Shown in pieces: positions 2,133 through 32,352 of a stretch of DNA of 33,312 nucleotides; position 1 is the first letter of the stretch, and every line of letters begins with the position of its first letter. Location: assembly GCA_046350795.1 (NCBI GenBank), contig JAXLZT010000001.1, positions 146,468 through 179,779 on the forward strand. The letters are read 5' to 3'. This DNA comes from Minisyncoccota bacterium. Lineage in GTDB: Bacteria; Patescibacteriota; Minisyncoccia; Phycocordibacterales; CALRHW01. A model generated the notes under the pieces. That model was given only the letters and a program-made list of their open reading frames with translations. It was not told the DNA's origin and did no database searches. A program made the translations under genes and the position numbers.

Positions 2133-2148
2133 ATTAGCAATAAAAATG

Positions 2149-3028: not shown

Positions 3029-3100
3029 TGCTCTCGGAGGGATTCGAACCCCCAACAACGGTTCCGAAGACCGGTATGATATCCATTTCACCACGAGAGC
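3029..3100 (-). tRNA. tRNA-Arg (anticodon UCG), no encoded CCA
   Basis: Reverse complement reads GCTCTCG...CCGGT-CTTCGGA-ACCGT...GGGGGTTCGAATCCCTC-CGAGAGC-A. Confidence 0.85.
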
Positions 3101-3123
3101 AATACAAAACATCATACGATAGA

Positions 3124-3153
3124 TTGGCTAAAAATCAAAGGATATACTACAAT
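3124..3153 (+). promoter_or_regulatory. Putative cca promoter (leaderless arrangement)
   Basis: TTGGCT (3124-3129), 18-nt spacer, TACAAT (3148-3153). The ATG at 3160 lies 6 nt after the -10. Confidence 0.45.
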
Positions 3154-3159
3154 TTGCTT

Positions 3160-12345: not shown

Positions 12346-13530
12346 CTAGAAAGGATTTACCGCTCCTCTAATTTCAAAATGAACATGAGGACCAGTAGAT
12401 TTTCCAGTAGATCCGAGATTACCAATCATCTGACCTTTTTTAACACGTTGTCCAACATATACAATAGTGCGTGACATATGAGCATACAGTGTTTGTGTAC
12501 CGTTATCGTGAGCTATTACAACATATGTACCATAACCTCCATTCCAACCAGTATTTTTACTTACTATTACGACACCGTCAGCCGCAGCCATTAGGGTAGA
12601 GCCAAGCGGAGCAGCTAAATCTACACCGTTATATCCGTGGATACCTTGTGTCTTTCTATAGCTAGCAAGCGGACTTGAATAATAACCATCTGGAACGGAA
12701 CGCATAGGTAAAGGATTTTTTGGAGCTCCATATGAAGAAGGAGGAACTGTCTTTGAGTATGGGTTTACTTTTGTCTGAACAGGAGCCATTTCTCCATCTG
12801 GAACTATAACCTCGTCACCAACAGCCAACTTACCATCAGAAGGAATGTCATTAAACTGCCTTATTTCGTCCACGTCACTTTTATACTTTTTAGCAATACT
12901 TTCAACTGTGTCTCCGGATTTTACTATATGCTTTACACCAGAAATAGGGAGAATAACGAGTGTTTGGCCTACAGATATAGTTCCTCCAGGTAAATCATTG
13001 GCCCAAACAATAGTATTTGTTGTCACACCAAACATTCTTGCTATCTGACCCAAAGTGTCGCCCTTTCGAACAACATACAAGCTAATCTGACCAGGAAGGA
13101 CATCCTCCCCAATACTTCCGATAGCATTCAACTCAGGCATGATAGCGCTATCATCAACTATACTGACCTCACCTCCACCCACAGACGGATTTAAACTAAG
13201 TGGAGCCTGCAAAAGAGGCATAGTCTGAGAGTTGTGTCCGCGTGCAGAAAACTCCTCAGAATTTGAACCGAAAATATTTGAAAAAGCACTAAAAAAGCCA
13301 GCATGAGCTGACGGTGGTGCAATAAAACTAAGCAAAAGCAATACAAGCTCGGCTGTCAAAATGACTCCGAAAACACTCTTTATGGCCTTAATCTTGGGTT
13401 TTTGGATAACAATATCTAAAACGCCAGAGATAAGATTGTATAACAGATGTAAAATAAGCCTAAGATTAATGATAATTTCGTCCTGAATTGGAAATATGGC
13501 TATAATTAGCCATATATTTATATCGGCCAT
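12346..13530 (-). CDS. Secreted LysM-repeat / M23 family peptidoglycan endopeptidase
   Basis: LysM-like repeats (YVVRKGDTLGQIARMFG, HIVKSGDTVESIAKKY) and an M23 core (HGYNGVDLAAP...YAHMS...GSTGKSTGPHVHFEI). Start set at MADIN because a TTGACG-N16-TATAAT promoter lies inside the longer tracked ORF. Confidence 0.85.
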   Translation of the reverse strand: MADINIWLIIAIFPIQDEIIINLRLILHLLYNLISGVLDIVIQKPKIKAIKSVFGVILTAELVLLLLSFIAPPSAHAGFFSAFSNIFGSNSEEFSARGHNSQTMPLLQAPLSLNPSVGGGEVSIVDDSAIMPELNAIGSIGEDVLPGQISLYVVRKGDTLGQIARMFGVTTNTIVWANDLPGGTISVGQTLVILPISGVKHIVKSGDTVESIAKKYKSDVDEIRQFNDIPSDGKLAVGDEVIVPDGEMAPVQTKVNPYSKTVPPSSYGAPKNPLPMRSVPDGYYSSPLASYRKTQGIHGYNGVDLAAPLGSTLMAAADGVVIVSKNTGWNGGYGTYVVIAHDNGTQTLYAHMSRTIVYVGQRVKKGQMIGNLGSTGKSTGPHVHFEIRGAVNPF

Positions 13531-13549
13531 TCTTTCTGGGTATCTAATT

Positions 13550-13577
13550 ATTATACAAGCGGGGGTTGGCACGTCAA
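13550..13577 (-). promoter_or_regulatory. Promoter of the LysM-M23 peptidase gene
   Basis: On the minus strand: TTGACG (13572-13577 on the + strand), 16-nt spacer, TATAAT (13550-13555). Confidence 0.55.
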
Positions 13578-16436: not shown

Positions 16437-16796
16437 CTAAGAGGTCCCCACCATTGTCATTATTCCTCGAGTAGGAATTTGATCTGCACAAAATCCATGA
16501 GAATAGTGACCACAACCAACAGGTACACCCGTGTGTAGACCGAGTACCCAATTACCAATTCCTAAAATACGAAAATTTGGGAAAAGCTGTGTTGCTCCGG
16601 GAACATACAAAAAGTTGCCTCCTACTGGACCAGACACAACAACAATAAATCCTGGCACAGGACACTCGCAATAATGTCGATACAGTGTAATTCCGCCAAA
16701 TGGAGAATATACAGCATATACCCTCATAGCTGTTGCAATAAAAATCCCTCCGACCAAAAAAGAAACCAGAAATATCGCTAAAATTTTTCTTTTCAT
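16437..16796 (-). CDS. Small secreted or membrane-anchored Cys/His-containing hypothetical protein
   Basis: 119 aa with an N-terminal signal/anchor (ILAIFLVSFLVGGIFIATA) and CEC...GCGHYSHGFC motifs. 1-nt gap to the upstream gene. Confidence 0.7.
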   Translation of the reverse strand: MKRKILAIFLVSFLVGGIFIATAMRVYAVYSPFGGITLYRHYCECPVPGFIVVVSGPVGGNFLYVPGATQLFPNFRILGIGNWVLGLHTGVPVGCGHYSHGFCADQIPTRGIMTMVGTS

Positions 16797-16797
16797 G

Positions 16798-17826
16798 TTA
16801 AATATTCTTTAGTGTAATTATACTCGGATTTAGTTTGTCACTCACACCGTTTGTGTTAACAACATACATAAACACCGGCATTTCAAAATCTTCATCTATC
16901 TCAAAAAGTTTTTCTAAATCTAAATCATCTGGAGCTTCTATATCAAATTTCAGAGTCTTGCCATCTGAAGAAGAAATATTTTCAAAAACGCCAAGATTTG
17001 TACGCACCATATTGCCGGTAGTTGTAAAATTTTCTCCTGTCACCACGACTTCATCTCCCAGAGAAAGGGTGGTAGGGGAAACGTTACTAATTTTTGGTGC
17101 AACAGAGCTGGTGTTTGTTACAACAAAATATGCGTTGTTTTCACTTTTTCCTGATTGATTTTGTACTTCTACATCATATATTCCAACAGGAATGGAGTTT
17201 GGAATAATAAATTTTATTTTATTTTTACTTTCAGCCGGTACACCGCTTATCACGTGAGAACCGAAATATATTTTATTATCAGTTAAAGAAAAATTATTTC
17301 CAACAATCTCAAGGGTGCTTCCCTGATTTCCATGATCTACAGAAAGAAAGGCAACCTGTACCTCTTTATCAGAGTCAGAAAAAAAGTTGAACGAGGTAAG
17401 TGTGCTTAAATCAAGCGGTGTTTGTGTTGTGGTGGGTAAGGTAGGTGCGGTGACACTAGTGTTTACCTCGTTTCCTATAGAATTCAATTTTGCTCTTGTG
17501 GATAAACCCACAAAGCCGGTGCCATAAAAAAGTCCATTTGGTGTCAAAATCTCATTCGCGTATTTATTTTGAAAAGCAACAACGGCGTTTTTTGTTTTTT
17601 CTCCAAAATAATATGTTTCATTTCCTTTTGATCCCAGACCGCTCAGGCTTACTGCAGTAGATATATCGTTATTTAAAATTTTTTGAAGTTCAAATACGTC
17701 CTCACCGGTATCTCCCAACTTTAAGTTTTTATTAAAAACAAAAGAAGAAGCGTTAGCTACATTATAAAAAAAAGAAGAAGATAAAAAAATAAATACGAAA
17801 TAGGTAATAGTAGATCTTTTAAACAT
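16798..17826 (-). CDS. Secreted protein with a PG_binding_1-like domain and IPT/TIG-like Ig-fold repeats
   Basis: LKLGDTGEDVFELQKILN...KTKNAVVAFQNKY (peptidoglycan-binding-like), then two beta-sandwich-like segments. Start set at MFKRSTI because TGtTACAAT lies 6 nt upstream of that ATG. Confidence 0.75.
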   Translation of the reverse strand: MFKRSTITYFVFIFLSSSFFYNVANASSFVFNKNLKLGDTGEDVFELQKILNNDISTAVSLSGLGSKGNETYYFGEKTKNAVVAFQNKYANEILTPNGLFYGTGFVGLSTRAKLNSIGNEVNTSVTAPTLPTTTQTPLDLSTLTSFNFFSDSDKEVQVAFLSVDHGNQGSTLEIVGNNFSLTDNKIYFGSHVISGVPAESKNKIKFIIPNSIPVGIYDVEVQNQSGKSENNAYFVVTNTSSVAPKISNVSPTTLSLGDEVVVTGENFTTTGNMVRTNLGVFENISSSDGKTLKFDIEAPDDLDLEKLFEIDEDFEMPVFMYVVNTNGVSDKLNPSIITLKNI

Positions 17827-17832
17827 ACAAAC

Positions 17833-17855
17833 ATTGTAACAGAATCTGATATAAT
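17833..17855. promoter_or_regulatory. Back-to-back divergent -10 elements in the 45-bp control region
   Basis: Minus strand: TGtTACAAT (-10 at 17833-17838), 6 nt before the ATG at 17826. Plus strand: TGaTATAAT (17847-17855), 16 nt before the ATG at 17872. Confidence 0.5.
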
Positions 17856-17871
17856 AGAGAAAATTAAACAA

Positions 17872-18864
17872 ATGAGAGGTCCTAGTAAAAAAATAATATT
17901 CATAATCATAACTTGCGCTGTTGTGTTGGGCGGAATATATCTATCATCAAAAGTAAAGAGTGAAAAGGTTTTTACGGCTACAGAAGATAACACACAACTT
18001 TTGCCTGATATCGTCGTAAATGAAAACGTAAAAAATACCTCCACTATAGACACAGACGGAGATGGCCTAAAAGACTGGGAAGAAGTACTGTGGAAAACAA
18101 ACCCATTAAAATCTGACACAGATGGAAATGGTATATCTGATGCAAAAGAAGTAGAAAAAAAACAACTTCAAAACTCCAAGCAAGCAGTGGCGACTGTGGG
18201 AGGAAAAGAGGTGGCGGAAGTCTATGTACCAGAAAATCTTACACTTACAGATAAGGTGGCCATGGAAACATTTGCACAATATGTAAATTACAAACAAACC
18301 GGGGTACCGATTACCCCAGAATTTACACAAAAACTAGTAGATGCTGTCTTTGGAAATGCTACAGAAAAACAGAATTTAGCAAAATTTACATCAAAAAACC
18401 TCTCAAATATAGTGGAAAATGAAAATGCTGACACTATACACAAGTACGGTAATGACTTTTGGGGTATTGTAGCAAAAAACACCCCAAAAACAGCGTTAGA
18501 AAATGAGTATGTGATTTTTCTCAATGCGATCCAAGCAGAAGATGAAAAAGAATTAAAAAAGCTAGATCCATTAGCAGAGGGATATACAAATACAATAAAA
18601 GAAATGCTTGTAATGCCCGTGCCAAGAAGTGCGGTGGAGAGACATCTAGACATTTTAAACAGCATGAATTCTATTTTGGCTCACATAGAGGACATGCGTG
18701 TATATTTCAAAGACCCAACCCGAGGATTCAGAGCGTTAGTATATTACAAAGACAGCGTACCAGAACTACAAAAATCACTAGAAAACCTTATCTCTTATTT
18801 CAAAGAAAAAAATATCACATATGTGGAGGAGGAGAGTGGCTACAGTCTGATGCATAGTATATAA
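17872..18864 (+). CDS. Membrane-anchored protein with thrombospondin-type-3-like Ca-binding repeats
   Basis: N-terminal TM; DTDGDGLKDWEE and DTDGNGISDAKE repeats. The remainder is unassigned. Confidence 0.75.
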   Translation: MRGPSKKIIFIIITCAVVLGGIYLSSKVKSEKVFTATEDNTQLLPDIVVNENVKNTSTIDTDGDGLKDWEEVLWKTNPLKSDTDGNGISDAKEVEKKQLQNSKQAVATVGGKEVAEVYVPENLTLTDKVAMETFAQYVNYKQTGVPITPEFTQKLVDAVFGNATEKQNLAKFTSKNLSNIVENENADTIHKYGNDFWGIVAKNTPKTALENEYVIFLNAIQAEDEKELKKLDPLAEGYTNTIKEMLVMPVPRSAVERHLDILNSMNSILAHIEDMRVYFKDPTRGFRALVYYKDSVPELQKSLENLISYFKEKNITYVEEESGYSLMHSI

Positions 18865-18887
18865 TTAATGGCAAAATAGCTATTAAT

Positions 18888-19859
18888 GTGTCAATAAATT
18901 ACTTTAAAAAAATTGGTTGCGGTATTTTTTTAGTTGCATTTGTTTTCTTTGCACTTTTTTCTAGTTTTACAGCTAATGCACAGGTGGCCGTGCCCGTGGT
19001 GGAAGTCGGAGCACTCCTCACCAACACAATAGCAATAAACGCCAACATTGCTGCAATAACAGAAAACTCTGCCAGACTGTCTGCAAAAGAGACTGGTCTT
19101 GGATATAGGGGGGTGGGCTTGGCTCCAGTAACTGGTATAGAAATAGCCGCTCAATCACAAATAAGTGCTGACTCTATAGCCACAAAAGTAGCAAAGATAG
19201 CCATCTCATCTATTACCACCTCAATAGTAAAATGGATAAATAGTGGTTTTAAGGGTGGACCGCTTTTTGTCACGGATCCAGCCAAGTTTTTCACCGGTGT
19301 GGCTGATAGAGTTGCCGGTAGTTTTATAGAGGGTTCTGATTTGGAATTTTTATGTAAGCCTTTTAAGATATCATTACTTCTTGCTTTAAATCTAAACTAT
19401 TCATACTCATTTAAAGAAAAAATTGGCTGTACTTTGACTGATGTTATTAACAACGTAGAGGGGGCAGCTGTCAGTTTTCAAGATATGGGCTTTGATGGCT
19501 GGTTTAAGATGACACAAAATCCACAAAATAATATCTACGGGGCAAACCTTATGGCAGAAATAGAATTAAAAGAAAGAATAGCTGATGCTGTTGGTATACA
19601 AAAAGCTGAGTTAGATCAGGGTGCTGGATTTCTTTCCTCTAGAGACTGTCTAGAAAGTAATATCGAAACACAAGAGTGTCAAAAGTGGGGCCCAGTAAAA
19701 ACACCAGGAAAAGTAATAGAAACACAACTAAATGAGGCTCTGGGCACCAACCTAAAAGAGCTCCAACTAGCTGACGAATTTGATGAAATAATAAACGCTC
19801 TTATAAATCAAGCTGTACAAAAAATAGTCACTTCTGTGGGTGGACTAAGTGGTGCTTAA
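18888..19859 (+). CDS. Secreted hypothetical protein (GTG start)
   Basis: A GTG start gives a clean signal peptide (IFLVAFVFFALFSSFTANA-Q). Contains paired Cys residues. No family recognised. Confidence 0.7.
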   Translation: MSINYFKKIGCGIFLVAFVFFALFSSFTANAQVAVPVVEVGALLTNTIAINANIAAITENSARLSAKETGLGYRGVGLAPVTGIEIAAQSQISADSIATKVAKIAISSITTSIVKWINSGFKGGPLFVTDPAKFFTGVADRVAGSFIEGSDLEFLCKPFKISLLLALNLNYSYSFKEKIGCTLTDVINNVEGAAVSFQDMGFDGWFKMTQNPQNNIYGANLMAEIELKERIADAVGIQKAELDQGAGFLSSRDCLESNIETQECQKWGPVKTPGKVIETQLNEALGTNLKELQLADEFDEIINALINQAVQKIVTSVGGLSGA

Positions 19860-19874
19860 AATTGACGACAATAC

Positions 19875-21944
19875 ATGATGAATTTATTTAATAAAAAAAA
19901 TGGCATAAGAATATTACTGGCGTCTTTTTTGTTATACATTACACTCTTGCCACATTATGCTTTTGCAGGGTGGTTTGATAGCCCAGCACAGACCATACTT
20001 TCTGGCATAACAACAGCTGTATCAACGGCGCTGTTGCCTATAATAATTCAGTTAACATTGGTTTTACAAATAATAGCCTCATTATTTCTTGGTCTTGCTG
20101 GGTTTATGTTTAGTGCAGTTATAAACCACTCTGTAGTAGGAATGCAAAGTCTTGTAAATAAAATGGTCTTTATAGACACAGCGTGGGCAACATTTAGAGA
20201 TTTAGCAAACATCTTTTTTATTTTCATACTTTTATACGTAGCTATAGGCACCATTTTAAATTTAAACGGTATAAATACAAAAAAAATGCTGGTGAGTGTA
20301 GTGATAACAGCAATATTTTTAAACTTCAGTCTGTTTTTTACAAAAATAGCTATAGATGCATCAAATCTTTTGGCTATTAATATACACAAAAGTATTGTTG
20401 GGGATAGTTGGAATATAGGCTCTCTTTTGATTGGTCAGACCGGAATGCAAACATTTTACACTCTTTTCAGGCCGGGCGTTATTTTAAATCCAACCCAAAC
20501 AATCATAACGCAGTTGGGTTCTTCCATATTTATGTTTATTGCTGCGTTTGTGATATTCTCTGTGGCTTTATTTTTCATAATACGTTTTGTGGTTTTGGTT
20601 TTCCTTATGATACTTTCTCCACTAGCATTTGCTGCAATGGCATTACCAAAAGACGAGTACTCAAAAAAATGGAAAGAGACTCTTATAAGTCAGTGTATAT
20701 TCGCCCCACTTTGTATGGCACTGCTTTGGATTACAGTAAATGTATCGGGAGAGCTAACAAAACAAACACAAAGTAGTGAGGCTTCTTTTGTAGACTTACT
20801 CAATCCCGATTTAAATCCAGCAACTAATCCTGGCCACAACCTAGAGCAAGCAATGATAATGCTTTTCAATTATATTGTTTTAATATCAATGCTCATATTC
20901 TCTTTAGTGATCTCAAAATCTTTTGCATCAAAGGGGGCGGGGCAGATGATGAAAATGGCAGAGTGGGCACAAGGCAAAGCGGGAAGGGCAATGGTGCGTG
21001 GTACTGGTGTAGCATACCTAGACAGAAAATTTGCTGATAGTAAGTTTGGTAAGGGAGTAATAGGAAGAAACATTCGCTCTATGACAACCGGAGCCATAAC
21101 TGGTTTTGATGGCTTTGGTGATAAAAAATCTGTGCAAAAAGTAGATAAAGAAACAAAGAAGCTTAATGAAGAATACGGTAAGAAGATGCGAGAAGATGAT
21201 GAAAAGTCAGATCTCAAGAAACATCGTGAAGATACTATAAAAAATCACCAACAAGAAATAAAACAACACGAGCAAACACAAGTAGAATCTGAACTAAAAC
21301 TACAAGAAGCTGAAGAAAGACTCAGAACTGAGGCGGCCGCAGGACGAGTGTTTGGAAAAGACACCTTGGAGCAAGAAAAAGAAAGGCTAGAAAACATGAA
21401 GAGGGAGTACGCTTCAATGTCTGGTGATGATGGCGGACAGAAAGATAGACTAATAGCAGAACAGGAACAAAAGATAAGAGACTCCGAACAAATACATAAA
21501 ACAATAGAAGAAAATAGAGAAAAACTACAATCATCAGCAGAAGCGCTGCGTGGAAAAGGAAAAGAAAAGGGTCTCTATGACAAAGTAAAAGAGGTAAGGA
21601 TGAGAATGGAAGACAAAGCTGGTGCAAGCACAGATGAGGAGAGGGCGGCTGTAAGGACAGCAATGAGAAAAAGAGCGGATGAATTAGAAAAATCTTGGAG
21701 AACTGGTAAGGGCCTTCTAAGTAAGATACCTGTATTGAGAAAAGTTAAGATTCCAATCGTTAAAGATTTCTTTGAAGACGTGTTGTCTGCAGGAGATGGT
21801 GATGCCGCTGTAAAAGCATACAGAAAAAACAAAGGTAAAGTTAATCTTAAAGAACTAGCCAAAGACATAGAGAGTGGTGGAGTAGAAAGCGGGGGTGACG
21901 ATGGTGGTGGGGGTGATGAAGAAAAAGGTAAAGATGGTAAATAA
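19875..21944 (+). CDS. VirB6/TrbL-like polytopic membrane protein with a long charged coiled-coil C-terminal domain
   Basis: Signal peptide, at least 6 TM segments including the LSPLAFAAMALP segment typical of TrbL/VirB6-type proteins, then ~330 aa of Lys/Glu-rich sequence ending in a Gly/Asp-rich tail. Confidence 0.75.
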   Translation: MMNLFNKKNGIRILLASFLLYITLLPHYAFAGWFDSPAQTILSGITTAVSTALLPIIIQLTLVLQIIASLFLGLAGFMFSAVINHSVVGMQSLVNKMVFIDTAWATFRDLANIFFIFILLYVAIGTILNLNGINTKKMLVSVVITAIFLNFSLFFTKIAIDASNLLAINIHKSIVGDSWNIGSLLIGQTGMQTFYTLFRPGVILNPTQTIITQLGSSIFMFIAAFVIFSVALFFIIRFVVLVFLMILSPLAFAAMALPKDEYSKKWKETLISQCIFAPLCMALLWITVNVSGELTKQTQSSEASFVDLLNPDLNPATNPGHNLEQAMIMLFNYIVLISMLIFSLVISKSFASKGAGQMMKMAEWAQGKAGRAMVRGTGVAYLDRKFADSKFGKGVIGRNIRSMTTGAITGFDGFGDKKSVQKVDKETKKLNEEYGKKMREDDEKSDLKKHREDTIKNHQQEIKQHEQTQVESELKLQEAEERLRTEAAAGRVFGKDTLEQEKERLENMKREYASMSGDDGGQKDRLIAEQEQKIRDSEQIHKTIEENREKLQSSAEALRGKGKEKGLYDKVKEVRMRMEDKAGASTDEERAAVRTAMRKRADELEKSWRTGKGLLSKIPVLRKVKIPIVKDFFEDVLSAGDGDAAVKAYRKNKGKVNLKELAKDIESGGVESGGDDGGGGDEEKGKDGK

Positions 21945-21953
21945 TATATAAAA

Positions 21954-22718
21954 ATGCAGGAGGAAGACTACAAAAAAATACTACAGAATCAAATAAAAAT
22001 ACTACCAGACGATGTAAGGGATTTGATTTTGTCTACAGAACTCGAGAGTAAGATAAACTGGGTTGCAGGAAAATATAACCTATCACCAGATCAAACAGAG
22101 TCACTTAAACAAGAGACTTTATTTGTACTTATCGGACTTACACACCTCATGGAATATACTGACAACATAATGCATGAACTTTCTATACCAAAAGAACAGG
22201 CTCGAATAATAGCACAAGAGATTGGTGCACAGGTATTTTCTGAGGTAAAAGATTCTATCAAAGAGTTAGGTTGGCTTATAGAAATGAAAAGAGAACAGTT
22301 GGGACAATCATCACAAAAATCAACACCAGATACAACACCCGCATCAAACCCAACCATCATTACAAAAAAGGAAGAGATTGTACCAAACGTTCCAATAGCT
22401 GGCGTGCTAATAGAGCAAACAGAAAAAGAAGTTCCTGTATCAGAAAATAAGCCCAGCCGAGCTGTATTACTCGATCAAATAGAAAATCCAACTCTCATAT
22501 CAGAGCACACTGGCACTATAGTAGATCAAAAACTAAGCGGTATTACAAAAATTCCAAGAGAAGAGGTGAAAATAAGTATGCAAAACATGCCAGTGACCGC
22601 TCCAGCACAAGTGACACCACCACAGACAAAGCCGGCGCCGATCACACCACCACCGACAGCACCGACACCCGCAAAAAAATATGATGGCCCAGACCCATAT
22701 CGAGAACCAATACAATAA
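21954..22718 (+). CDS. Hypothetical protein with a Pro-rich C-terminus
   Basis: 254 aa with a helical N-terminal domain, a Pro/Thr-rich tail (PPQTKPAPITPPPTAPTP) and a terminal DPYREPI. Confidence 0.7.
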   Translation: MQEEDYKKILQNQIKILPDDVRDLILSTELESKINWVAGKYNLSPDQTESLKQETLFVLIGLTHLMEYTDNIMHELSIPKEQARIIAQEIGAQVFSEVKDSIKELGWLIEMKREQLGQSSQKSTPDTTPASNPTIITKKEEIVPNVPIAGVLIEQTEKEVPVSENKPSRAVLLDQIENPTLISEHTGTIVDQKLSGITKIPREEVKISMQNMPVTAPAQVTPPQTKPAPITPPPTAPTPAKKYDGPDPYREPIQ

Positions 22719-22723
22719 AAAAT

Positions 22724-23152
22724 ATGAGATTCCAAGTACCACAATTTACAGATGTAGAAGACAAGATCTTTGGACCACTTTCCTTTAGGCAGTTTGTCTA
22801 TTTGGCTGGAGGCGCAGGAGCCTGCGCTATTATTTACTACCTAGTACCATTTAGTGTTGTTGCCTTTATGATTATGGTGCCGGTAGCAATATTTGCTGTG
22901 GCACTTGCTTTTTACAAAGTAAACAACAAACCATTCATAAACGTGGTAGAGGCTTTTTTCAAGTACTCAATCACAAGCAAACTCTACATTTGGAAACATG
23001 AGCCGAAAAAGGTGACGATGGCATCCACACCAAAAGAGCTTTCTCGTAGCTTTTTACCAAAGCTTTCTAGTAGCAAACTAAAAGATATGACCTGGAATCT
23101 AGACATCACAGAAAGCATAAATCCTGTCACAAAAAGCGATACAAATAATTAG
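22724..23152 (+). CDS. PrgI-family (VirB3-like) T4SS membrane protein
   Basis: The N-terminus QVPQFTDVEDKIFGPLSFRQFVYL followed by two TM helices is the PrgI-family hallmark. Lies immediately upstream of the VirB4 genes. Confidence 0.75.
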   Translation: MRFQVPQFTDVEDKIFGPLSFRQFVYLAGGAGACAIIYYLVPFSVVAFMIMVPVAIFAVALAFYKVNNKPFINVVEAFFKYSITSKLYIWKHEPKKVTMASTPKELSRSFLPKLSSSKLKDMTWNLDITESINPVTKSDTNN

Positions 23153-23176
23153 AGAAATAGGATATAATTCTTTTAT

Positions 23177-23824
23177 ATGGCAACAAAAGCAAGAGCCTCC
23201 CAAGAATTTGTTCCTATAAGCGACATAAGAGATGGCGTTGTCACACTCAAAGACGGCTCTCTTCGTGCTATCCTCATGGCTTCATCTCTCAATTTTTCTC
23301 TAAAATCAGATGATGAACGTGCAGCAATACTTTATCAGTTTCAAGATTTTCTAAACTCTTTAGATTTTTCTGTACAAATATCTATACAATCTAGAAAACT
23401 AGATATACGCCCGTACGTAGCCCTTTTAGAAGAGACTGAAAAAAATCAGGTCAATGATCTGATGAAAATACAAGTGCAGGAGTACATCGGCTTTATCAAA
23501 AATTTTACCGAAAGCCACAACATCATGACAAAACACTTTTTTATCATCGTGCCGTATTCACCAGCGACACTGCAGGGTAAAAGTACAGTAAGTGGTATCA
23601 CTGGTATTTTTGGAAAAAAGAAAAGTGTAGACGATCAAAAAATATCAGAAAAAGAAAAATTTGAAGAGCATCGCACACAACTAGAACAGAGGCTGGCGGT
23701 GGTGGAGCAGGGACTAGTGCGATCTGGAATACGTGTGGCACAACTAGGTACAGAAGAGGTGGTGGAGTTATTTTATAAAATATTTAATCCAGGCGATGCG
23801 GAAAAGCCTATTCAACTTCAATAA
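23177..23824 (+). CDS. Hypothetical protein resembling the N-terminal domain of Gram-positive VirB4/Orf16-type ATPases
   Basis: FVPISDIRDGVVTLKDGSLRAILMASSLNFSLKSDDERAAILYQFQDFLNSLDFSVQISIQS follows the pattern I recall from N-termini of conjugative VirB4 homologues. No nucleotide-binding motif. Confidence 0.65.
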   Translation: MATKARASQEFVPISDIRDGVVTLKDGSLRAILMASSLNFSLKSDDERAAILYQFQDFLNSLDFSVQISIQSRKLDIRPYVALLEETEKNQVNDLMKIQVQEYIGFIKNFTESHNIMTKHFFIIVPYSPATLQGKSTVSGITGIFGKKKSVDDQKISEKEKFEEHRTQLEQRLAVVEQGLVRSGIRVAQLGTEEVVELFYKIFNPGDAEKPIQLQ

Positions 23825-23829
23825 AAAAT

Positions 23830-25644
23830 ATGAGCTTTTTTAGTAAATTATTTGGTAGCACAAAAAAAGAGGAAATCAATATTGGCATGCTTCCTCAAGA
23901 AATATACAAAGCGGAGGCTTTGGAGCTAAAAGATATTATCGCACCAAGCGCGCTTAAAATAGGTCCGCGAGAACTCAATCTGGGAGACAAAATAGTGCGT
24001 ACTTTTTTTGTCATTTCTTATCCGCGATTTCTCGGTGAGAGTTGGTTTGCTCCGATCATCAACCTAGATAAGGTTTTTGATGTTTCTATATTTGTCCACC
24101 CAATAGATACAGTAAAGGTGTTGCGCCAATTTCAAAAAAAAGTAGCTGAGGTACAAAGCCAGATACACGAGAGAGAAGAAAAGGGGATGGTGCGTGACCC
24201 AATGCTAGACACAGCTTATCAAGACCTAGAAAATCTCCGTGACAACCTACAGCAGGCACAAGAAAAACTTTTTGACGTGGGCCTATATCTCTCTGTCTAT
24301 GGAGAAAATGAAAATGAACTTGATAAAATAGAATCTGAAATAAAATCTATCTTGGAATCAAAGCTTGTATATGTAAAACCTGCACTTTTCCAACAAGAAC
24401 AGGGATACAAAAGCGTGCTTCCTATCGGCACCGACTTACTAGAAGTACATTCAAAGCTAAATTCCTCTCCACTTTCAAGTCTTTTCCCATTTATTTCTTT
24501 TGACCTCACATCAGACAAGGGAATTCTCTATGGTATCAACCGTCACAATGCCAGCCTCGTACTATTTGACCGCTTTTCACTAGAAAATTACAACTCTATT
24601 ACCTTTGCAAAGTCAGGATCTGGAAAATCATACGCTACAAAGCTAGAGATTTTGCGTACGCTGATGTTTGATACAGAAGTGATAGTGATAGACCCAGAGC
24701 GAGAATATGAATACATGGCTGAGGCGGTGGGTGGCAGGTATTTCAAAATATCACTCAACTCTGAGCACCATATCAATCCATTTGATCTACCTCTACCAGG
24801 AGAAGATGAGTCAGCGGCGAGCGTGTTGCGTAGTACGATTATCAATCTAGTGGGTCTTTTCCGACTGATGCTTGGCGGTCTGACCGCAGAAGAGGACGCT
24901 ATCATGGATCGTGCAATCACAGAGACATACGCACTCAAAGACATCACGGCAGAATCTGATTTTACAAACGTAGATCCACCACTTATGTCAGACTTTGAGC
25001 TGGTGCTCAGTGGTATGGAGGGGGGAGAGTCTTTGGCTCAGCGTCTTTCAAAATATACAAAAGGTACTTGGGCTGGATTTATAAATAGACCAACAAACAT
25101 AGATATAAATAAAAAGTTTATCGTATTCTCTTTGCGTGACATGGAAGACGAGCTTAAGCCTATCGCTATGTATATAGTCATGCACTATATATGGAGTGCT
25201 ATTAGAAAAGAGCTGAAGAAAAGACTTCTTGTGATTGACGAGGCGTGGTGGATGATGAAATCAGAAGACACAGCGTCTTTCCTTCTCAGTCTGGCAAAAC
25301 GTGGACGAAAATATTATTTAGGTCTAGCTACCATCACACAGGACGTGGATGATTTCCTCAAATCTCCATACGGTATGCCTATTATTACCAATTCATCTAT
25401 ACAGGTTTTGCTAAAACAATCCCCAACATCTATCGACAAGCTTCAGCAGACTTTCAATCTCACAGATGAAGAAAAATATTTGCTACTAGAATCATCGGTA
25501 GGAGAGGGAATATTTTTTGCTGGCCTAAAACACGTAGCAATAAAAATAATCGCATCATACACAGAAGACCAGATCATCACCTCAGATCCATCTCAAGTCC
25601 TCTCTATTCAAAAAGCAAAGCGCGATCTAGAAAATTCGCAATAA
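23830..25644 (+). CDS. VirB4/TrbE/PrgJ-family T4SS ATPase
   Basis: Walker A AKSGSGKSY, Walker B LLVIDEAWWMM, and ATITQDVDDF with a downstream motif; VRTFFVISYPRFL in the N-terminal domain. Confidence 0.9.
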   Translation: MSFFSKLFGSTKKEEINIGMLPQEIYKAEALELKDIIAPSALKIGPRELNLGDKIVRTFFVISYPRFLGESWFAPIINLDKVFDVSIFVHPIDTVKVLRQFQKKVAEVQSQIHEREEKGMVRDPMLDTAYQDLENLRDNLQQAQEKLFDVGLYLSVYGENENELDKIESEIKSILESKLVYVKPALFQQEQGYKSVLPIGTDLLEVHSKLNSSPLSSLFPFISFDLTSDKGILYGINRHNASLVLFDRFSLENYNSITFAKSGSGKSYATKLEILRTLMFDTEVIVIDPEREYEYMAEAVGGRYFKISLNSEHHINPFDLPLPGEDESAASVLRSTIINLVGLFRLMLGGLTAEEDAIMDRAITETYALKDITAESDFTNVDPPLMSDFELVLSGMEGGESLAQRLSKYTKGTWAGFINRPTNIDINKKFIVFSLRDMEDELKPIAMYIVMHYIWSAIRKELKKRLLVIDEAWWMMKSEDTASFLLSLAKRGRKYYLGLATITQDVDDFLKSPYGMPIITNSSIQVLLKQSPTSIDKLQQTFNLTDEEKYLLLESSVGEGIFFAGLKHVAIKIIASYTEDQIITSDPSQVLSIQKAKRDLENSQ

Positions 25645-25648
25645 AAAT

Positions 25649-26221
25649 ATGCCAAAAATCTCAATGTTCATGGCTGTACTGTTGGTGACCGTCGCAATTT
25701 TGGTTGACGTCACACAGTCTCTCACGGATCTACTACACTTTATTCCTGTTATTGGAAATGCTTTAGCTGTCATAGTGAGCTGGTTATTAGACATAGCATC
25801 TATATTTTCTTTTTATATCTGGCTCAAATTACTAAATGTGAGTTTTGTAGATCCAAAAAGAGCAATTCGGTTTTTTGGCTTTGCTGGTTGTGAATGGTTA
25901 CCTGTAGTAGACGTACTTCCACTTTGGACAACAGGAATAGCACTCACCATAGCAAGTGTGTGGGCAGAAGAGAGAATACAAACAATGACTGGAGTAAACA
26001 TAGCTATAAATGCACGCCTTGCTGCAGGATCTAAAAAAATCCCCGGTGGTGGATTTGGACCAAACGCAATCAGAACCCCTGGGGGAGGTATGGGTGATAT
26101 TTCTAAATCAATGAAAGATTATGCGGCGTTTAAAAAGAGGAGACATGACATGGGTAGGTCGGTGATGGGTGGAGGAGATATATTATTAGGTAACGGTTCA
26201 GAGGAGGATGCATCGGATTAA
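25649..26221 (+). CDS. Polytopic membrane protein, hypothetical
   Basis: 190 aa with about 4 TM segments and a Gly-rich C-terminal tail. Confidence 0.7.
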   Translation: MPKISMFMAVLLVTVAILVDVTQSLTDLLHFIPVIGNALAVIVSWLLDIASIFSFYIWLKLLNVSFVDPKRAIRFFGFAGCEWLPVVDVLPLWTTGIALTIASVWAEERIQTMTGVNIAINARLAAGSKKIPGGGFGPNAIRTPGGGMGDISKSMKDYAAFKKRRHDMGRSVMGGGDILLGNGSEEDASD

Positions 26222-26229
26222 AGATGTGA

Positions 26230-26257
26230 TTGAATAAAACACCCACCGTGCTAAAAT
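26230..26257 (+). promoter_or_regulatory. Internal promoter in the T4SS-like locus (leaderless arrangement)
   Basis: TTGAAT (26230-26235), 16-nt spacer, TGcTAAAAT (-10 at 26252-26257). The ATG at 26264 lies 6 nt downstream. Confidence 0.5.
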
Positions 26258-26263
26258 TATAGA

Positions 26264-27265
26264 ATGAAAAGAATTTTTTCTACTACACTTTTTATAATAT
26301 TTTTTGGTCTAACTAACATTGCTTATGCACAGACCATACCAGCACAAGACAACTTACAATTCATAGTCACACCAGAATACCCAGGACCAAAAGAAGTAGT
26401 AAACATACAAATAGAAGATTACACACAAAATCTAAATTCACTAGAAATATCCTGGTTTTTGGATGGAAAACTTCAAAAAAAGGGTGTAGGGGATAGAAAA
26501 TTTCAGTTTACAACAGGTGATCTTGGTAGTGTTTCAAAAATAAGTGTATCGTCATCTGCTTTTTCAAAAGAAATGAATATACGGCCGACAGGGCTTGATA
26601 TTGTGTGGCAAACAAAAAGCTATACACCGCCATTTTATAAAGGAAAAGCGCTTTATACATACCAAAGTCTGGTTGATTTTGTGGCAATGCCATCTTTTAT
26701 GACGTCTTCTGGTGCAATGATAGATCCAAAAACCCTTGTATATAAATGGACTCGCAATGGATCTGTGCTGGGGGATAGCTCTGGATATGGTAAGAATGTT
26801 TTTTCTACTAGCGGTGGCGTACTAGCAAAGCCATTACAGGTAGAAGTAGAAGCTTCTACTATAGATGGAAGTATGCGAGCAAAAAAAAGTATTGAATTGC
26901 AAGGCGCACAACCAGAGGTATTTTTGTATGAAAACCATCCGTTATACGGAATATTGTATAATAAAGCTATTGGACCACAGTTTGATCTTAAATCAAAAGA
27001 AATATCTCTGTCTTCTGCGCCGTATTTTTTTGATGTAAATAGAAAAGACGATCCAGCTTTAACATACAACTGGAGTATGAACGGAAAAAAATTATCAAAT
27101 CAAAAAAACCCAGACTCGCTTGTATTGAGAAAACCAGATAACACACAATCCGGATCAGCTTTGGTGGGAGTAAACATACAAAAAATTGGCAGAAGTTTAC
27201 AGTTTAGGGATTTTTCTACAAAAATAAGATTTGAAGTGTCAGATGAAAACACACCAACAATATGA
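26264..27265 (+). CDS. Secreted hypothetical protein (beta-rich, Ig-like repeats likely)
   Basis: Signal peptide FGLTNIAYA-Q. 333 aa. The stop overlaps the next start (ATGA). Confidence 0.7.
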   Translation: MKRIFSTTLFIIFFGLTNIAYAQTIPAQDNLQFIVTPEYPGPKEVVNIQIEDYTQNLNSLEISWFLDGKLQKKGVGDRKFQFTTGDLGSVSKISVSSSAFSKEMNIRPTGLDIVWQTKSYTPPFYKGKALYTYQSLVDFVAMPSFMTSSGAMIDPKTLVYKWTRNGSVLGDSSGYGKNVFSTSGGVLAKPLQVEVEASTIDGSMRAKKSIELQGAQPEVFLYENHPLYGILYNKAIGPQFDLKSKEISLSSAPYFFDVNRKDDPALTYNWSMNGKKLSNQKNPDSLVLRKPDNTQSGSALVGVNIQKIGRSLQFRDFSTKIRFEVSDENTPTI

Positions 27266-28116
27266 TGAAAGTATTTAAAAAAACATTAGCGGTTGTATCT
27301 GCATCAATAGTAATCTTTACTATTTTTGCAATATTACCAAACATTGTTGGTGCAGAAAATGTTGAGTATGTTCCGCTTAGCCCGCTTCCTGACGGGAGTG
27401 GTGGGGTGATGAATAACACCAACATCACCACATACCTTATTGGTATTTTTAAGCTTCTTATTGGTGTGGCTGGAGCACTAGCTGTGGTAATGATAGTGGT
27501 AGGGGGCATACAATACATGTCTACTGATGCAATATATGGCAAAAAAGATGGGAAGGAAAAAATAAATCGAGCACTCGGTGGACTACTTTTAGCCCTAACA
27601 TCATGGCTCATACTCAACACCATAAATCCAAAACTTCTAGAAATAAAAGCCCTAATACCAAAAACAAACTTATCACAACAAGCAACGACACCCGTAAACA
27701 CTCAAACATTTAAAGCAAAAATTATTGTAAATCCACTGAGCGGACCAATAGCACAAGAGACTTTTTGTATTGGATCTTATTCGTCACTTGAGTCGTGCAA
27801 CGCTAATCTTGGCGCCACCGTTCAAATGAATTACCCAGTAACTCAGTACGAGATTGTAGGGACTTATTGTACGACTGGTTGTGTAGCAGCCCAAACACTA
27901 AACAGTGGGGAGTGGGTTGTATACATAAGCAAATACGAAAACGGACCAGCAACTCAATTGTGTTTAGGAAACTTTCCAACTCAAGCGGAGTGCAATGCTG
28001 CCAAGCCTGGTATTGTACAAGAACAGGGTGGTACCACACAACAAGGTGGTCCTGTGACTGTAAACAATTGTGTACAAAAATCTATGTGTCCTCCATCAAA
28101 TGGATCAGGGCAATAA
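27262..28116 (+). CDS. VirB2/TrbC-like T4SS pilin (CPR T4SS_pilin type) with a ~150-aa Cys-rich C-terminal extension
   Basis: Signal peptide, then two hydrophobic helices flanking a QYMSTDAIYGKKDGKEKINRA loop (IGIFKLLIGVAGALAVVMIVVGGIQY...LGGLLLALTSWLILNTINP). The extension carries two C-[IL]-G-x-[YF]-x5-E-C-N-A modules. Confidence 0.75.
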   Translation: MMKVFKKTLAVVSASIVIFTIFAILPNIVGAENVEYVPLSPLPDGSGGVMNNTNITTYLIGIFKLLIGVAGALAVVMIVVGGIQYMSTDAIYGKKDGKEKINRALGGLLLALTSWLILNTINPKLLEIKALIPKTNLSQQATTPVNTQTFKAKIIVNPLSGPIAQETFCIGSYSSLESCNANLGATVQMNYPVTQYEIVGTYCTTGCVAAQTLNSGEWVVYISKYENGPATQLCLGNFPTQAECNAAKPGIVQEQGGTTQQGGPVTVNNCVQKSMCPPSNGSGQ

Positions 28117-28122
28117 AAATAC

Positions 28123-29367
28123 ATGTTAAACAAAATCGTCATCGTAATAGCAATCATTGTACTCGTTATTGGAGGGTTTTTTGGCTATCTATACATCACA
28201 CAAAAAGACTCTGGTGCTGGCGTGAGTGGGGTAGTATCTACAGTAAGAAATTTTTTTCCTTTCGGTAACGAAGCTGATGTGGCAACAACAAATCCACAAA
28301 ACACAAATGAGCCGAGCGCCACAGTCCCTAATGTACCCACAGTACCACAAGACCTCAGACAAATTTACTCTTTTCCAGTAGCTGGCGCAGAAGCTTTTAT
28401 AATAAGTAGCAGTACTGTAGTGCGTTTCCTTGAAAAAAGTACCGGCAACATGTTTGAAGCACAAACAGCTCTGGATACGGTGGACAGAATATCAAACACA
28501 ACCATACCGAAAATCGCTGAGGCTATTTTTATACAAAAAAATTCTGTCTTGTTTAGATACCTAAAAGACGACAGCGATCTCATAGAGACCGTATTTGGTA
28601 CACTATCTACTACAACAAACGCAACAAGCACTACTACCACCTTAGGAGAAATACAAAGTACATATCTCACACCAAATATAAAAGAAATCGCACTGTCTCC
28701 TAAAAAAGATCAGATATTTTACACAGTCCAGTCTGGCTCTGGGTCAATAGGCACTATCTCAAACCCAGATGGTACAAAAAAGGTGCAATTATTTGATTCT
28801 CCAATACGTGAATGGAATATTTCTTGGCCAAAAACAAACACAGTTACAATCACAACCAAGGCTAGTGCTAGCGTACCCGGATATTTATATTTTGTTAACA
28901 CAACCACTGGAAAGATGGAAAGGATTTTGGGTAATGTTTTGGGCCTCACCACCCTCACAAACAGCACAGCATCGAGCACTATATACAACCAGAATGACAG
29001 TGTGGGAAATACGCATCTAAGTCTGTTTGATATAAAAACAAAAACATCTACAAAACTAAACACCATAACATTTACAGAAAAGTGTGTTTGGAGTAAAAAA
29101 AATGTTGGCCTTTTATACTGTGCCGTACCAGAAAACATACCTGGCGGAAGCTATCCTGACGCTTGGTACAAAGGACTCACTTCTTTCTCTGATAGTTTGT
29201 GGAAAATAGACACAACAACAGGTCAAACTGATCTTTTGGTAAATATAAAAGAAGTCTCTGGAAAAGATTTGGATATTATAAACATGTCGCTTAGCGAAAA
29301 AGAAGACTTTTTGGTATTTTCAAACAAAACAGATCTTAGTCTGTGGGGATTTAAGATACCAATGTAG
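28123..29367 (+). CDS. Membrane-anchored hypothetical protein (beta-propeller-like extracytoplasmic domain possible)
   Basis: N-terminal TM IVIVIAIIVLVIGGFFGYLYI. 414 aa. Its 3' end overlaps convergent yidC by 17 nt. Confidence 0.7.
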   Translation: MLNKIVIVIAIIVLVIGGFFGYLYITQKDSGAGVSGVVSTVRNFFPFGNEADVATTNPQNTNEPSATVPNVPTVPQDLRQIYSFPVAGAEAFIISSSTVVRFLEKSTGNMFEAQTALDTVDRISNTTIPKIAEAIFIQKNSVLFRYLKDDSDLIETVFGTLSTTTNATSTTTTLGEIQSTYLTPNIKEIALSPKKDQIFYTVQSGSGSIGTISNPDGTKKVQLFDSPIREWNISWPKTNTVTITTKASASVPGYLYFVNTTTGKMERILGNVLGLTTLTNSTASSTIYNQNDSVGNTHLSLFDIKTKTSTKLNTITFTEKCVWSKKNVGLLYCAVPENIPGGSYPDAWYKGLTSFSDSLWKIDTTTGQTDLLVNIKEVSGKDLDIINMSLSEKEDFLVFSNKTDLSLWGFKIPM

Positions 29368-30771: not shown

Positions 30772-32118
30772 ATGGATAGTAAAAAACTTTGGGATAGTGT
30801 GCTAGTAGATGTGGAAATGAACGTATCTAAAGCCAACTTCAACACATGGTTTAAAGACACCTTTATATACAAACTTGAAGATGGTGTGGCATACCTTAGT
30901 GTGCCAAATGCCTTTGTACGACAATGGTTAAGCGACAAATACCACTCTTTTATACTAAAATCTCTCAGAAACCTATCAGAAAACATTAGATCACTTGATT
31001 ACATAGTAAATAAAAGTGATGCAAAGAAAAAAGAGCCGGAAATTATAAAAAACATCTTAGAAAGATCAAACGAATTACCTTTAAGTGATTTTTATATAAA
31101 CAAGGACGACAACTTAAACCCTAAATATACATTTGATTCTTTTGTTGTTGGTCCTTTCAATGAGTTAGCTCATGCAGCGGCTCAGGCTATTATAAAAAAG
31201 CCAGGAATAGTATATAACCCACTTTTTATATACGGCAACACTGGTCACGGTAAGACCCACCTTATACAAGCCATAGGTAACCAAATAAAACACAACAACC
31301 CTGAGAAAAAGGTTCATTATGTTACCTCAGAAAAATTTACTATAGACTACATCAATTCCGTCCAAAACCAAAAAGTAAACAATTTTAAGGAGAAATATCG
31401 AAAATACGATGTTTTAATCATGGATGATATACAATTTTTCTCTAAAAAAGAGAGTACCCAAGAGGAACTTTTCCATTTATTCAACCACTTATACGACAAC
31501 AATAAGCAGATTATCTTTTCCTCAGACAAACACCCAAATTACATATCAAACCTAGAAGATCGCCTAAAATCACGCTTTGGGGCAGGAATGATAGTAGATA
31601 TACCACCACCAGACCACGAGTCTAGAGTGACTATATTGCGCTCAAAACTAAAATCAAACAACTTTGATTTATCTGCAGAAGTGGTGGATTATCTAGCGCA
31701 AACATTATCAAGTAATATACGGGAATTAGAGGGTGCTTTAAACAGCATAATCTGCCAAGCACAATTAAAACAAAAAGATTTAACCCTAAATGATGTAAAA
31801 AATCTTATCAAAAACAGTGCGAAACCAAAGAAAAACCTTTCTCCAAAAGAAATAATCAAAGTGGTGGCTGATTTTTACAACATAAACGAAGAAAGTATAT
31901 ACGAAAAAACTAGAAAAAAGGAGATTATTAAACCAAGACAGGTCACTATGTACATATTAAGAGAAGATTTTAATATATCTTACCCATCAATAGGGGAGAA
32001 AATGGGTGGTCGAGATCACACAACAGTCATTCATTCGTGTGAAAAGATAAAAAGTGACTTAAAGTTTGATAATCTGCTTTCACAGGAGATAAATCAGATT
32101 CGATCAATGTTGGTTTGA
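30772..32118 (+). CDS. dnaA: Chromosomal replication initiator DnaA
   Basis: NPLFIYGNTGHGKTHL, DVLIMDDIQF, SNIRELEGAL and the C-terminal DNA-binding domain (GGRDHTTVIHSCEKI). Confidence 0.95.
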   Translation: MDSKKLWDSVLVDVEMNVSKANFNTWFKDTFIYKLEDGVAYLSVPNAFVRQWLSDKYHSFILKSLRNLSENIRSLDYIVNKSDAKKKEPEIIKNILERSNELPLSDFYINKDDNLNPKYTFDSFVVGPFNELAHAAAQAIIKKPGIVYNPLFIYGNTGHGKTHLIQAIGNQIKHNNPEKKVHYVTSEKFTIDYINSVQNQKVNNFKEKYRKYDVLIMDDIQFFSKKESTQEELFHLFNHLYDNNKQIIFSSDKHPNYISNLEDRLKSRFGAGMIVDIPPPDHESRVTILRSKLKSNNFDLSAEVVDYLAQTLSSNIRELEGALNSIICQAQLKQKDLTLNDVKNLIKNSAKPKKNLSPKEIIKVVADFYNINEESIYEKTRKKEIIKPRQVTMYILREDFNISYPSIGEKMGGRDHTTVIHSCEKIKSDLKFDNLLSQEINQIRSMLV

Positions 32119-32142
32119 TATAATTAATGGTTGTGTATAGTA

Positions 32143-32345
32143 TGTGAATAAGTGTGGATTGATGTGAATAAGAACAAAAAATAATTGAGAAAAAACACAT
32201 TATTCACATCTCATAAAAAAATATCCACAAATTATCAAACATCTTTTTTAAAAAATAAGGCTAAAAATATGACTTTTAAAAACTTATCCAGATATCCACA
32301 GCGTTAATAGTAATAATAGTATTTATATATAGTAATTAAATAATA
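32143..32345 (+). other. oriC candidate: DnaA-box cluster plus AT-rich unwinding stretch (dnaA-dnaN intergenic)
   Basis: Boxes: TGTGAATAA 32143-32151, TGTGGATTG 32153-32161, TGTGAATAA 32163-32171, TTATTCACA 32200-32208, ATATCCACA 32221-32229, TTATCCAGA 32284-32292, ATATCCACA 32292-32300. Almost pure A/T follows at 32306-32345. Confidence 0.75.
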
Positions 32346-32352
32346 CAGTTAA

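Follow-up and report, generated by a model that had tools for sequence, protein, structure and literature searches.

The 33,312-nucleotide stretch of DNA analysed here (the window) comes from contig JAXLZT010000001.1 of a Minisyncoccota bacterium and contains, between rsmA and yidC, a gene cluster for a type IV secretion system (T4SS). This locus is a real T4SS gene cluster of an ultrasmall bacterium of the Paceibacteria, in the Candidate Phyla Radiation (CPR), and very probably represents the non-conjugative type of T4SS known from Patescibacteria. Systems of this kind, without a relaxase and close to the replication origin, have already been described across the phylum between 2023 and 2025, and the window is a rediscovery, not a new kind of system. 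The first-pass annotation of the window considered the function of most of the locus undescribed, which is outdated: publications of 2023 and 2025 describe the system, including its dnaA, rnpA and ksgA context. The window adds one more clean example from Paceibacteria and leaves the published picture unchanged. Small new details are a conserved accessory set in Paceibacteria with Ig-like and beta-propeller-like members, and hypervariable C-terminal domains of the pilin, some of them with an M15-peptidase-like motif.

The map of open reading frames (ORFs) shows 11 co-oriented, tightly packed ORFs at positions 17872-29367 (Table 1). Intergenic gaps do not exceed 43 bases and therefore leave no room for a twelfth gene, so the twelve co-oriented genes counted in the first-pass annotation have to be reduced to 11. 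Two divergent ORFs lie at 16437-17871. The left flank consists of uvrD and rsmA and the right flank of yidC, rnpA, rpmH and dnaA. Signal or transmembrane segments were found in 9 of the 13 locus proteins. Scanning for promoters and terminators was uninformative, as promoter-like sites were fewer than in shuffled sequence.

Components of the secretion apparatus

All window ORFs of sizeable length were scanned against Pfam and NCBIfam. The 604-aa VirB4-type ATPase scored 374.8 bits against the NCBIfam model 'VirB4-like conjugal transfer ATPase, CD1110 family' (cutoff 325) and matched P-loop_TraG (5.7e-28) and AAA_10 (4.5e-11) in Pfam. Both Walker A (GSGKS) and Walker B (LLVIDEA), already pointed out in the first-pass annotation, are visible in its translation. 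Among solved structures, the VirB4 domain of PDB entry 4AG5 comes closest (1.6e-41), with TrwK of plasmid R388 being far poorer (2e-8), and the closest plasmid VirB4s, all 28-37 % identical, come from Firmicutes or Actinobacteria. These three results speak for a monoderm affinity of the ATPase, in line with mating-pair formation (MPF) type FATA. The protein scores 125 bits on the TIGR00929 VirB4_CagE model (cutoff 643). Its match to archaeal CedB is local, restricted to the P-loop region (E 6.7e-9), and at 34.9 bits it stays below the equivalog cutoff of 700 for this ATPase of the archaeal Ced DNA-import system.

Of the 752 positions in the CD1110 model, the ATPase covers 181-733 only, that is, the C-terminal two-thirds of a canonical VirB4. 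The preceding gene, which ends 5 bases upstream of virB4, encodes a 215-aa TrsD-like protein with matches to N-terminal parts of VirB4 models (VirB4_plasma 1.8e-9, positions 100-235; CD1110 1e-6, positions 7-119) and to TrsD NF041427 (2.8e-5); its precomputed annotation is PF26593, TraC-like. VirB4 is therefore split into two genes in this locus. No paralogy between the 215-aa and the 604-aa protein was detected by BLASTP, as expected for proteins equivalent to separate portions of VirB4. The 215-aa protein had been listed among the unplaceable orphans of the locus and has to be removed from them, being a homologue of TrsD and of the VirB4 N-terminal domain.

Two further components were recognised as first proposed. 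The PrgI/VirB3-like protein has two hydrophobic segments and matches PF12666 with 49.7 bits (E 5.4e-13, cutoff 27). The VirB2-like pilin scored 25.7 bits on the T4SS_pilin family, just below the Pfam cutoff of 26.6; 39 of its 40 orthologues match this family and four match TrbC/VirB2.

The VirB6/TrbL-like protein (689 aa) could be confirmed through its relatives and its fold. It has approximately 7-8 transmembrane helices (residues 1-350) followed by a charged coiled-coil C-terminal half, and the window protein itself has no direct Pfam match. The homologues P0192 and P0191 pass the cutoff of TrbL PF04610 (28.0 and 27.2 against 25.9) over nearly the whole model, and weak TrbL matches are present in 3 of 41 orthologues. 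We modelled the membrane domain using AlphaFold2 (AF2; predicted local distance difference test, pLDDT, 84.8; predicted template modelling score, pTM, 0.75), and the top Foldseek matches from PDB were TrwI/VirB6 chains of R388 with a probability of 0.98-1.0 (TM 0.31-0.50, 12-17 % identity, E 0.02-0.1). The R388 Trw stalk (TrwI/VirB6; PDB 7O3V, 8RT9, 8RTD) is thus the best, though weak, structural match of this domain. Unlike TrwI, the window protein carries an extra charged coiled-coil tail of ~320 aa, and no VirB5 partner was identified. With this tail it fits the 'extended VirB6' type (PMC12857230). A strong purine skew at 21001-22000 (GC skew 0.335, AT skew 0.405) overlaps the coiled-coil half, in which K, R, E and D make up 41 % of residues.

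Relation to published systems and conservation in Paceibacteria

Wang et al. 2023 (Cell, PMC10633639) showed by transposon sequencing (Tn-seq) that Candidatus Southlakia epibionticum ML1 cannot grow epibiotically without its T4SS (SEML1_0006-0019). This system resembles Gram-positive conjugative systems, has unusual pilins and contains no recognisable coupling or relaxase proteins (PMC10633639). In the survey of Quinonero-Coronel et al. 2025 (PMC12102498), VirB4 was found in 2,417 of 3,035 CPR genomes, where it forms a monophyletic clade nested in MPF-FATA and is associated with PrgI/VirB3, VirB6, VirB2-like pilins and TrsD, the commonest T4SS accessory in Patescibacteria. Relaxases were present in only 103 of the 3,035 genomes and VirD4-like homologues in 2,918, mostly distant from virB4. 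The T4SS neighbours in Paceibacteria and Microgenomatia are dnaA, dnaN, rnpA, ksgA and rpmH (PMC12102498), which matches the window exactly. The authors propose a gene-dosage advantage of the near-origin position and an import of host DNA or other macromolecules; a 2025 review repeats this picture and speculates on a pilus conduit (PMC12857230).

The window resembles these Patescibacteria systems in being chromosomal, in combining VirB4 with TrsD, PrgI/VirB3, VirB6 and a VirB2-like pilin, in having neither relaxase nor coupling protein in the cluster, and in its place beside dnaA. Whereas S. epibionticum has 6 small pilins encoded in an array, the window encodes only one pilin, whose C-terminal domain is variable, and unlike in the published Patescibacteria loci, no peptidase or lysozyme genes stand immediately downstream of virB4. 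Its accessory set (the 330-, 323-, 333- and 414-aa proteins) is lineage-specific and unnamed in both papers (PMC10633639, PMC12102498).

The conjugative systems of MPF-FATA (pCF10 Prg/Pcf, pGO1 Trs, CTn2 CD1110) share with the window a VirB4 passing the CD1110 cutoff, a PrgI-type VirB3 and a TrsD-like protein, as well as the lack of an outer-membrane core and of VirB11. Unlike them, the window has no relaxase, no type IV coupling protein (T4CP) and no PrgB-type adhesin, and it is fixed in the chromosome rather than carried by a plasmid or an integrative and conjugative element (ICE). It also has a VirB2-like pilin, a component that is absent from Gram-positive systems, and its VirB4 is distant from those of the plasmids. 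The absence of VirB11 is normal for monoderm-type systems. The list of Gram-positive T4SS components in the 2025 review does not contain VirB11 either (PMC12857230).

For the conservation analysis, one genome per GTDB species was scanned, which gave 578 genomes with a VirB4 relative, and 80 loci were fetched with 10 kb flanks. They are labelled Paceibacteria, Zambryskibacteria, Taylorbacteria and similar. Loci of at least 20 kb (n = 45, from different species) are referred to as long loci. The order 323-689-PrgI-TrsD-VirB4-333-pilin-414-yidC-dnaA is kept in all 45 of them, and the 323-, 689-, 333- (34 % identity) and 414-aa proteins are each present in 45 of 45. The pilin was detected in 44 of 45, rsmA in 41 and the 330-aa gene in 36 (26 % identity). 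The synteny beside yidC and rsmA that the first-pass annotation suggested checking is thus well kept. TrsD is found in 76 and PrgI in 74 of the 80 loci. Median identity over the loci is 82 % for VirB4, somewhat inflated as the 80 loci were picked by VirB4 similarity, 64 % for TrsD, 52 % for PrgI and 26-41 % for the extracytoplasmic proteins. The DnaA (64 %) and RsmA (52 %) proteins of these genomes stay below the 82 % of VirB4. A block of 11 genes that is fixed beside oriC in at least 45 species, with a VirB4 more conserved than DnaA, supports an essential role.

VirB4 homologues are found in thousands. The best 120 are 84-100 % identical, and all those with a given source name belong to Parcubacteria, Zambryskibacteria, Minisyncoccota or Patescibacteria. 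Several contigs from metagenomes carry an identical VirB4 in an unchanged gene arrangement.

The position of the locus beside the replication origin, claimed earlier, is supported by DnaA-box clusters that flank dnaA and by the low GC content (29 % at 32001-33000) of the spacer following this gene. The window contains 25 DnaA-box matches compared to 10.2 +/- 3.3 expected, and the T4SS block lies 1.3-3 kb from the clusters, which, judged from the sequence, are probably oriC. The next gene after the oriC spacer is presumably dnaN, running off the window end.

We found no relaxase, VirD4/TcpA or VirB11 family in any scanned ORF of the window, as the first-pass annotation stated, and VirB8, VirB9 and VirB10 families were likewise not detected in it. 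The same annotation also listed an integrase among the missing parts, and here a correction is needed, because a Xer-type tyrosine recombinase is encoded ~9 kb from the edge of the locus, behind housekeeping genes. Most probably this recombinase serves to resolve chromosome dimers and is not an ICE integrase. Direct or inverted att-like repeats at the borders of the block, together with a relaxase and a coupling protein, would have pointed to an ordinary ICE, and the search for such repeats returned chance-level A-rich matches only. The flanks are conserved, and the description of the locus as lying between housekeeping genes and not inside a mobile element was correct.

None of the 45 relatives has an ORF of T4CP size with a P-loop, or an inserted relaxase, inside the block. 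Their blocks are compact (10.3-16.6 kb), in general with gaps not exceeding about 2 kb, and where a gap is larger, as in a few cases, it is occupied by additional secreted proteins or small insertions. Of the features characteristic of conjugative elements, a MOB relaxase and VirD4/TcpA are missing from the 33 kb window, the only recombinase is the distant Xer-type enzyme, no att sites or repeats bound the block, and the block is not variably present but collinear in all 45 relatives. Judging from these comparisons, the locus belongs to the vertically inherited core of the chromosome, is ancient and of monoderm-type ancestry, and is not an ICE, because gene order is kept in 45 loci, bounding repeats are absent and plasmid VirB4s are at most 37 % identical.

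A rare break of the block was seen in two loci (L027:12342-13778, L034:12684-13352 (-)), where an ORF of ~220 aa stands on the opposite strand between VirB4 and the 333-aa gene. Its product starts with 'MSLRKTPFVSGEYYH(V/I)YNRGN' and resembles an IS200/REP-associated Y1 transposase.

Putative function and alternative explanations

We consider it likely that the locus is the Paceibacteria form of a chromosomal, vertically inherited Patescibacteria T4SS, which arose from monoderm (MPF-FATA-like) conjugation machinery and is no longer conjugative. Regarding the mechanism, the situation is less clear. A VirB4-powered VirB6/VirB3 channel, probably with a VirB2-like pilus, that exchanges macromolecules at contact with a host has in our opinion about an even chance of being correct. 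Such an apparatus could be assembled as follows. The two-gene VirB4, consisting of the TrsD-like N-terminal domain and the ATPase, would dock through the PrgI/VirB3 hairpin onto the extended VirB6 channel in the cytoplasmic membrane, and the ATPase would power extraction and polymerisation of the pilin. The envelope proteins, i.e. the 323-aa, the 330-aa, the Ig-like 333-aa and the propeller-like 414-aa protein, may form or stabilise a wall-spanning and surface-exposed part. The pilus or channel would then contact the host cell of the epibiont and move macromolecules between both cells, and either direction, import of host material or export of effectors, is possible. The first-pass annotation regarded host contact or uptake as plausible, and the same hypothesis has been put forward in the literature (PMC12102498, PMC12857230). 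How the very abundant, uncultivated CPR bacteria exploit host cells can be approached at the molecular level in few ways, and the Patescibacteria T4SS offers one of them.

Several points weigh against this explanation. The VirB6 identity of the 689-aa window protein is indirect and the E-values of its fold match are weak (0.02-0.1). Neither a VirB8-like nor a clear VirB1-like component could be recognised within the block, and other parts of the genome may contain a gene for a T4CP or, in rare cases, for a relaxase. To our knowledge, no monoderm T4SS has ever been seen to form a pilus. Experimental evidence is limited to Saccharibacteria (S. epibionticum), with none for Paceibacteria, and the epibiotic lifestyle of the source organism is assumed from its lineage.

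Among the alternatives, an uptake machine of the ComB kind, which would pass environmental or host DNA to ComEC and ComM for natural transformation, is the first to be considered, and we find it unlikely. Like the ComB system of Helicobacter pylori, the locus is chromosomal, is not conjugative and has no dedicated relaxase or coupling protein in view; the weak local match to CedB also goes in this direction, and the survey, in which genes for competence and recombination were noted close to the T4SS of class ABY1, names import of DNA as one possibility (PMC12102498). A comM gene is indeed present ~5.5 kb upstream of the locus edge, as the first-pass annotation noted. However, it lies near the locus in only 1 of the 80 relatives, and its proximity looks coincidental. 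ComB belongs to the diderm MPF-T systems (ComB2-4, 6-10) and has an outer-membrane core, whereas the window is of the monoderm type, with a VirB4 of the CD1110/MPF-FATA and not the ComB4 kind and with no VirB7-10 core detected, and the CedB score is far from its cutoff. ComB is also not the only T4SS working without a coupling protein, contrary to what had been supposed, since Bordetella Ptl and Brucella VirB lack one too (PMC12102498). Moreover, transformation of S. epibionticum needs comEC, which is dispensable, yet its T4SS is essential (PMC10633639, PMC12857230), and this argues against a simple competence role. For these reasons (comM synteny, VirB4 type, other coupling-less systems and dispensable comEC), the analogy with ComB and comM appears weak.

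Even less likely is that the system still transfers DNA by conjugation, using a coupling protein and a relaxase encoded elsewhere in the genome. VirD4-like homologues are common in CPR genomes (2,918 of 3,035), and t4cp often stands beside a relaxase and away from virB4 (PMC12102498), which would agree with such an arrangement. Against it speak the rarity of relaxases (103 of 3,035 genomes), the t4cp homologue of S. epibionticum, which is non-essential in contrast to the T4SS genes (PMC12102498), and the core block itself, whose fixed place beside oriC in 45 of 45 relatives is unlike a mobile element. Finally, a decaying, non-functional ICE remnant that lost its relaxase, T4CP and integrase would account for the missing conjugation-specific parts, the tyrosine recombinase in the window and several genes without a detectable family, and this idea can be dismissed, as it appears effectively refuted by synteny and conservation: all ORFs are intact and tightly packed, VirB4, TrsD and PrgI have kept the identities given above across species, all 45 long loci share one gene order, flanking repeats are missing, the recombinase is of the Xer type and ~9 kb away, and no plasmid VirB4 exceeds 37 % identity.

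Envelope proteins and other features of the window

The conserved part of the pilin consists of the N-terminal ~125 residues only, as seen in the alignment of orthologues, and the C-terminal module (30-370 aa) is hypervariable between species, with a median pilin length in the clade of 322 aa. In the window this module (27637-28113) is Cys-rich, contains two imperfect repeats and has no Pfam match at E <= 0.1, so a SPOR-like nature of the window pilin C-terminus is unsupported. The orthologues are found among loci L007-L052 (e.g. L013:13445-14413, L016:12286-13131, L022:13190-14104, L043:11545-12726). In ~16 of 40 relatives, the pilin ends in a domain of ~150 aa with '(S/T)xHxxGxxxD ... HWH' motifs. 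These motifs, more fully '(S/T)xHxxGxxxD...HWHV', resemble M15/LAS zinc peptidases. One weak Peptidase_M15_4 match (E 8e-4) was obtained for the C-termini of the relatives, no PDB sequence match was found for these domains, and the pilin of the window itself has no such motif. The M15-peptidase-like C-terminus, which is not mentioned in the 2025 survey (PMC12102498), is a lead only.

The 323-aa secreted protein is a short form of a family with a median length of 545 aa. Its core is conserved, Cys-containing and mainly helical, and the C-terminal part of the orthologues varies between F5/8 type C (discoidin), Ig-like, fn3, InlB B-repeat, PKD and SdrD_B domains. Such swapping of adhesin-type domains suggests species-specific surface binding. 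The AF2 model of the window protein was of low overall confidence (pTM 0.31) and gave no fold match. A DUF4141 match was found in one homologue (residues 22-55), and a VirB5-like role resting on this single short match is not claimed.

A VirB2-like N-terminal domain joined to a variable module in the pilin, and lectin and Ig modules swapped likewise in the 323-aa protein, raise the idea that the pilin could be a display scaffold. The pilus would carry host-specific adhesins or cell-wall-cutting enzymes, take the place of the missing VirB1 as well as of the pilin arrays known from Saccharibacteria, and set the host range. We mention this tentatively and think it is rather improbable.

The remaining proteins of the block were more difficult to place. 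The 330-aa protein has no relative in PDB by profile search. The family of the 333-aa protein shows weak BiPBP_C, Ig_3, PKD and MG4 matches and a PDB match to Hoc Ig-like (0.003), and that of the 414-aa protein weak DPPIV_N, PD40 and DUF5050 matches, PG_binding_1 in 2 members and a TolB match of 0.095. Searches of the 689, 333, 414, 323 and 330 families against PDB sequences returned nothing significant, with coiled-coil noise and weak Ig/TolB hints only. All-against-all hhalign comparison of 10 locus families gave no pair with a probability of 30 % or more, and thus no hidden paralogy and no VirB8-like candidate among them. The four unannotated envelope proteins are concrete accessory candidates and a fixed core feature across at least 45 species. 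The 254-aa and 190-aa proteins have no match in Pfam or NCBIfam and evolve fast; their slots are nevertheless occupied, with an ORF between the 689-aa gene and PrgI in 57 of 60 loci and between VirB4 and the 333-aa gene in 56 of 67.

The divergent pair was described earlier as secreted, one member with a peptidoglycan-binding-like domain, and this agrees with our results: the 357-aa protein has a TIG domain (1.3e-7, 32 bits, above cutoff) and a PG_binding_1-like region (21 bits, cutoff 23). Its gene is called at 342 aa in near-identical contigs and accompanies the locus in 21 of the 80 relatives. Its small neighbour was found in only 4 of 80. A gene for a LysM and M23 peptidase ~4 kb upstream of the locus may encode the wall hydrolase of the system; M23/LysM-bearing VirB1 homologues are associated with virB4 in Paceibacteria (PMC12102498). 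It is syntenic in 8 of 80 loci, in the others maybe just outside the 10 kb flanks.

Table 1. Features of the T4SS locus and its surroundings, in window coordinates
Positions	Strand	Feature	Basis or remark
6452-7393	-	tyrosine recombinase, Xer-type	XerC/XerD models 241-249 bits; passes XerA/integron-integrase cutoff
12346-13572	-	LysM + M23 peptidase, candidate VirB1-like wall hydrolase	Peptidase_M23 3.3e-30, LysM 4.7e-26
16437-16796	-	small membrane or secreted protein, system membership doubtful	no family match
16798-17826	-	divergent secreted protein, TIG + PG_binding_1-like region, variable accessory	Pfam
17872-18864	+	TSP3 (calcium-binding) repeat, membrane-anchored protein, 330 aa, first gene of block	TSP3_bac 7.6e-9
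18888-19859	+	secreted protein, 323 aa, unknown fold, short form	conserved in relatives
19875-21944	+	extended VirB6/TrbL-like polytopic membrane protein, 689 aa	homologues and fold match
21954-22718	+	fast-evolving soluble protein, 254 aa, Pro-rich tail	no transmembrane segment; position conserved
22724-23152	+	PrgI/VirB3-like two-helix membrane protein	PF12666
23177-23824	+	TrsD-like protein, 215 aa, equivalent of VirB4 N-terminal domain	N-terminal matches to VirB4 models
23830-25644	+	VirB4-type ATPase, C-terminal two-thirds of canonical VirB4, CD1110/MPF-FATA type	profile matches
25649-26221	+	fast-evolving small polytopic membrane protein, 190 aa	3-4 hydrophobic segments; position conserved
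26264-27265	+	secreted protein, 333 aa, probably Ig-like/beta-sandwich	N-terminal signal-like segment
27262-28116	+	VirB2-like T4SS pilin, variable Cys-rich C-terminal extension (residues ~126-284)	T4SS_pilin family
28123-29367	+	membrane-anchored extracytoplasmic protein, 414 aa, probably beta-propeller	N-terminal transmembrane segment
30657-30676		two more DnaA boxes	upstream of dnaA
32143-32300	.	DnaA-box cluster, six near-consensus boxes	AT-rich spacer after dnaA; likely oriC

Elsewhere in the window, four tRNA genes (Gly-TCC, Pro-TGG, Gly-GCC, Arg-TCG) are located around 1728-3100 (-) and 3028-4650 (+). The listed GTG start of the ORF for the CCA-adding enzyme / poly(A) polymerase overlaps tRNA-Arg, and the true start of this enzyme is therefore probably further downstream.

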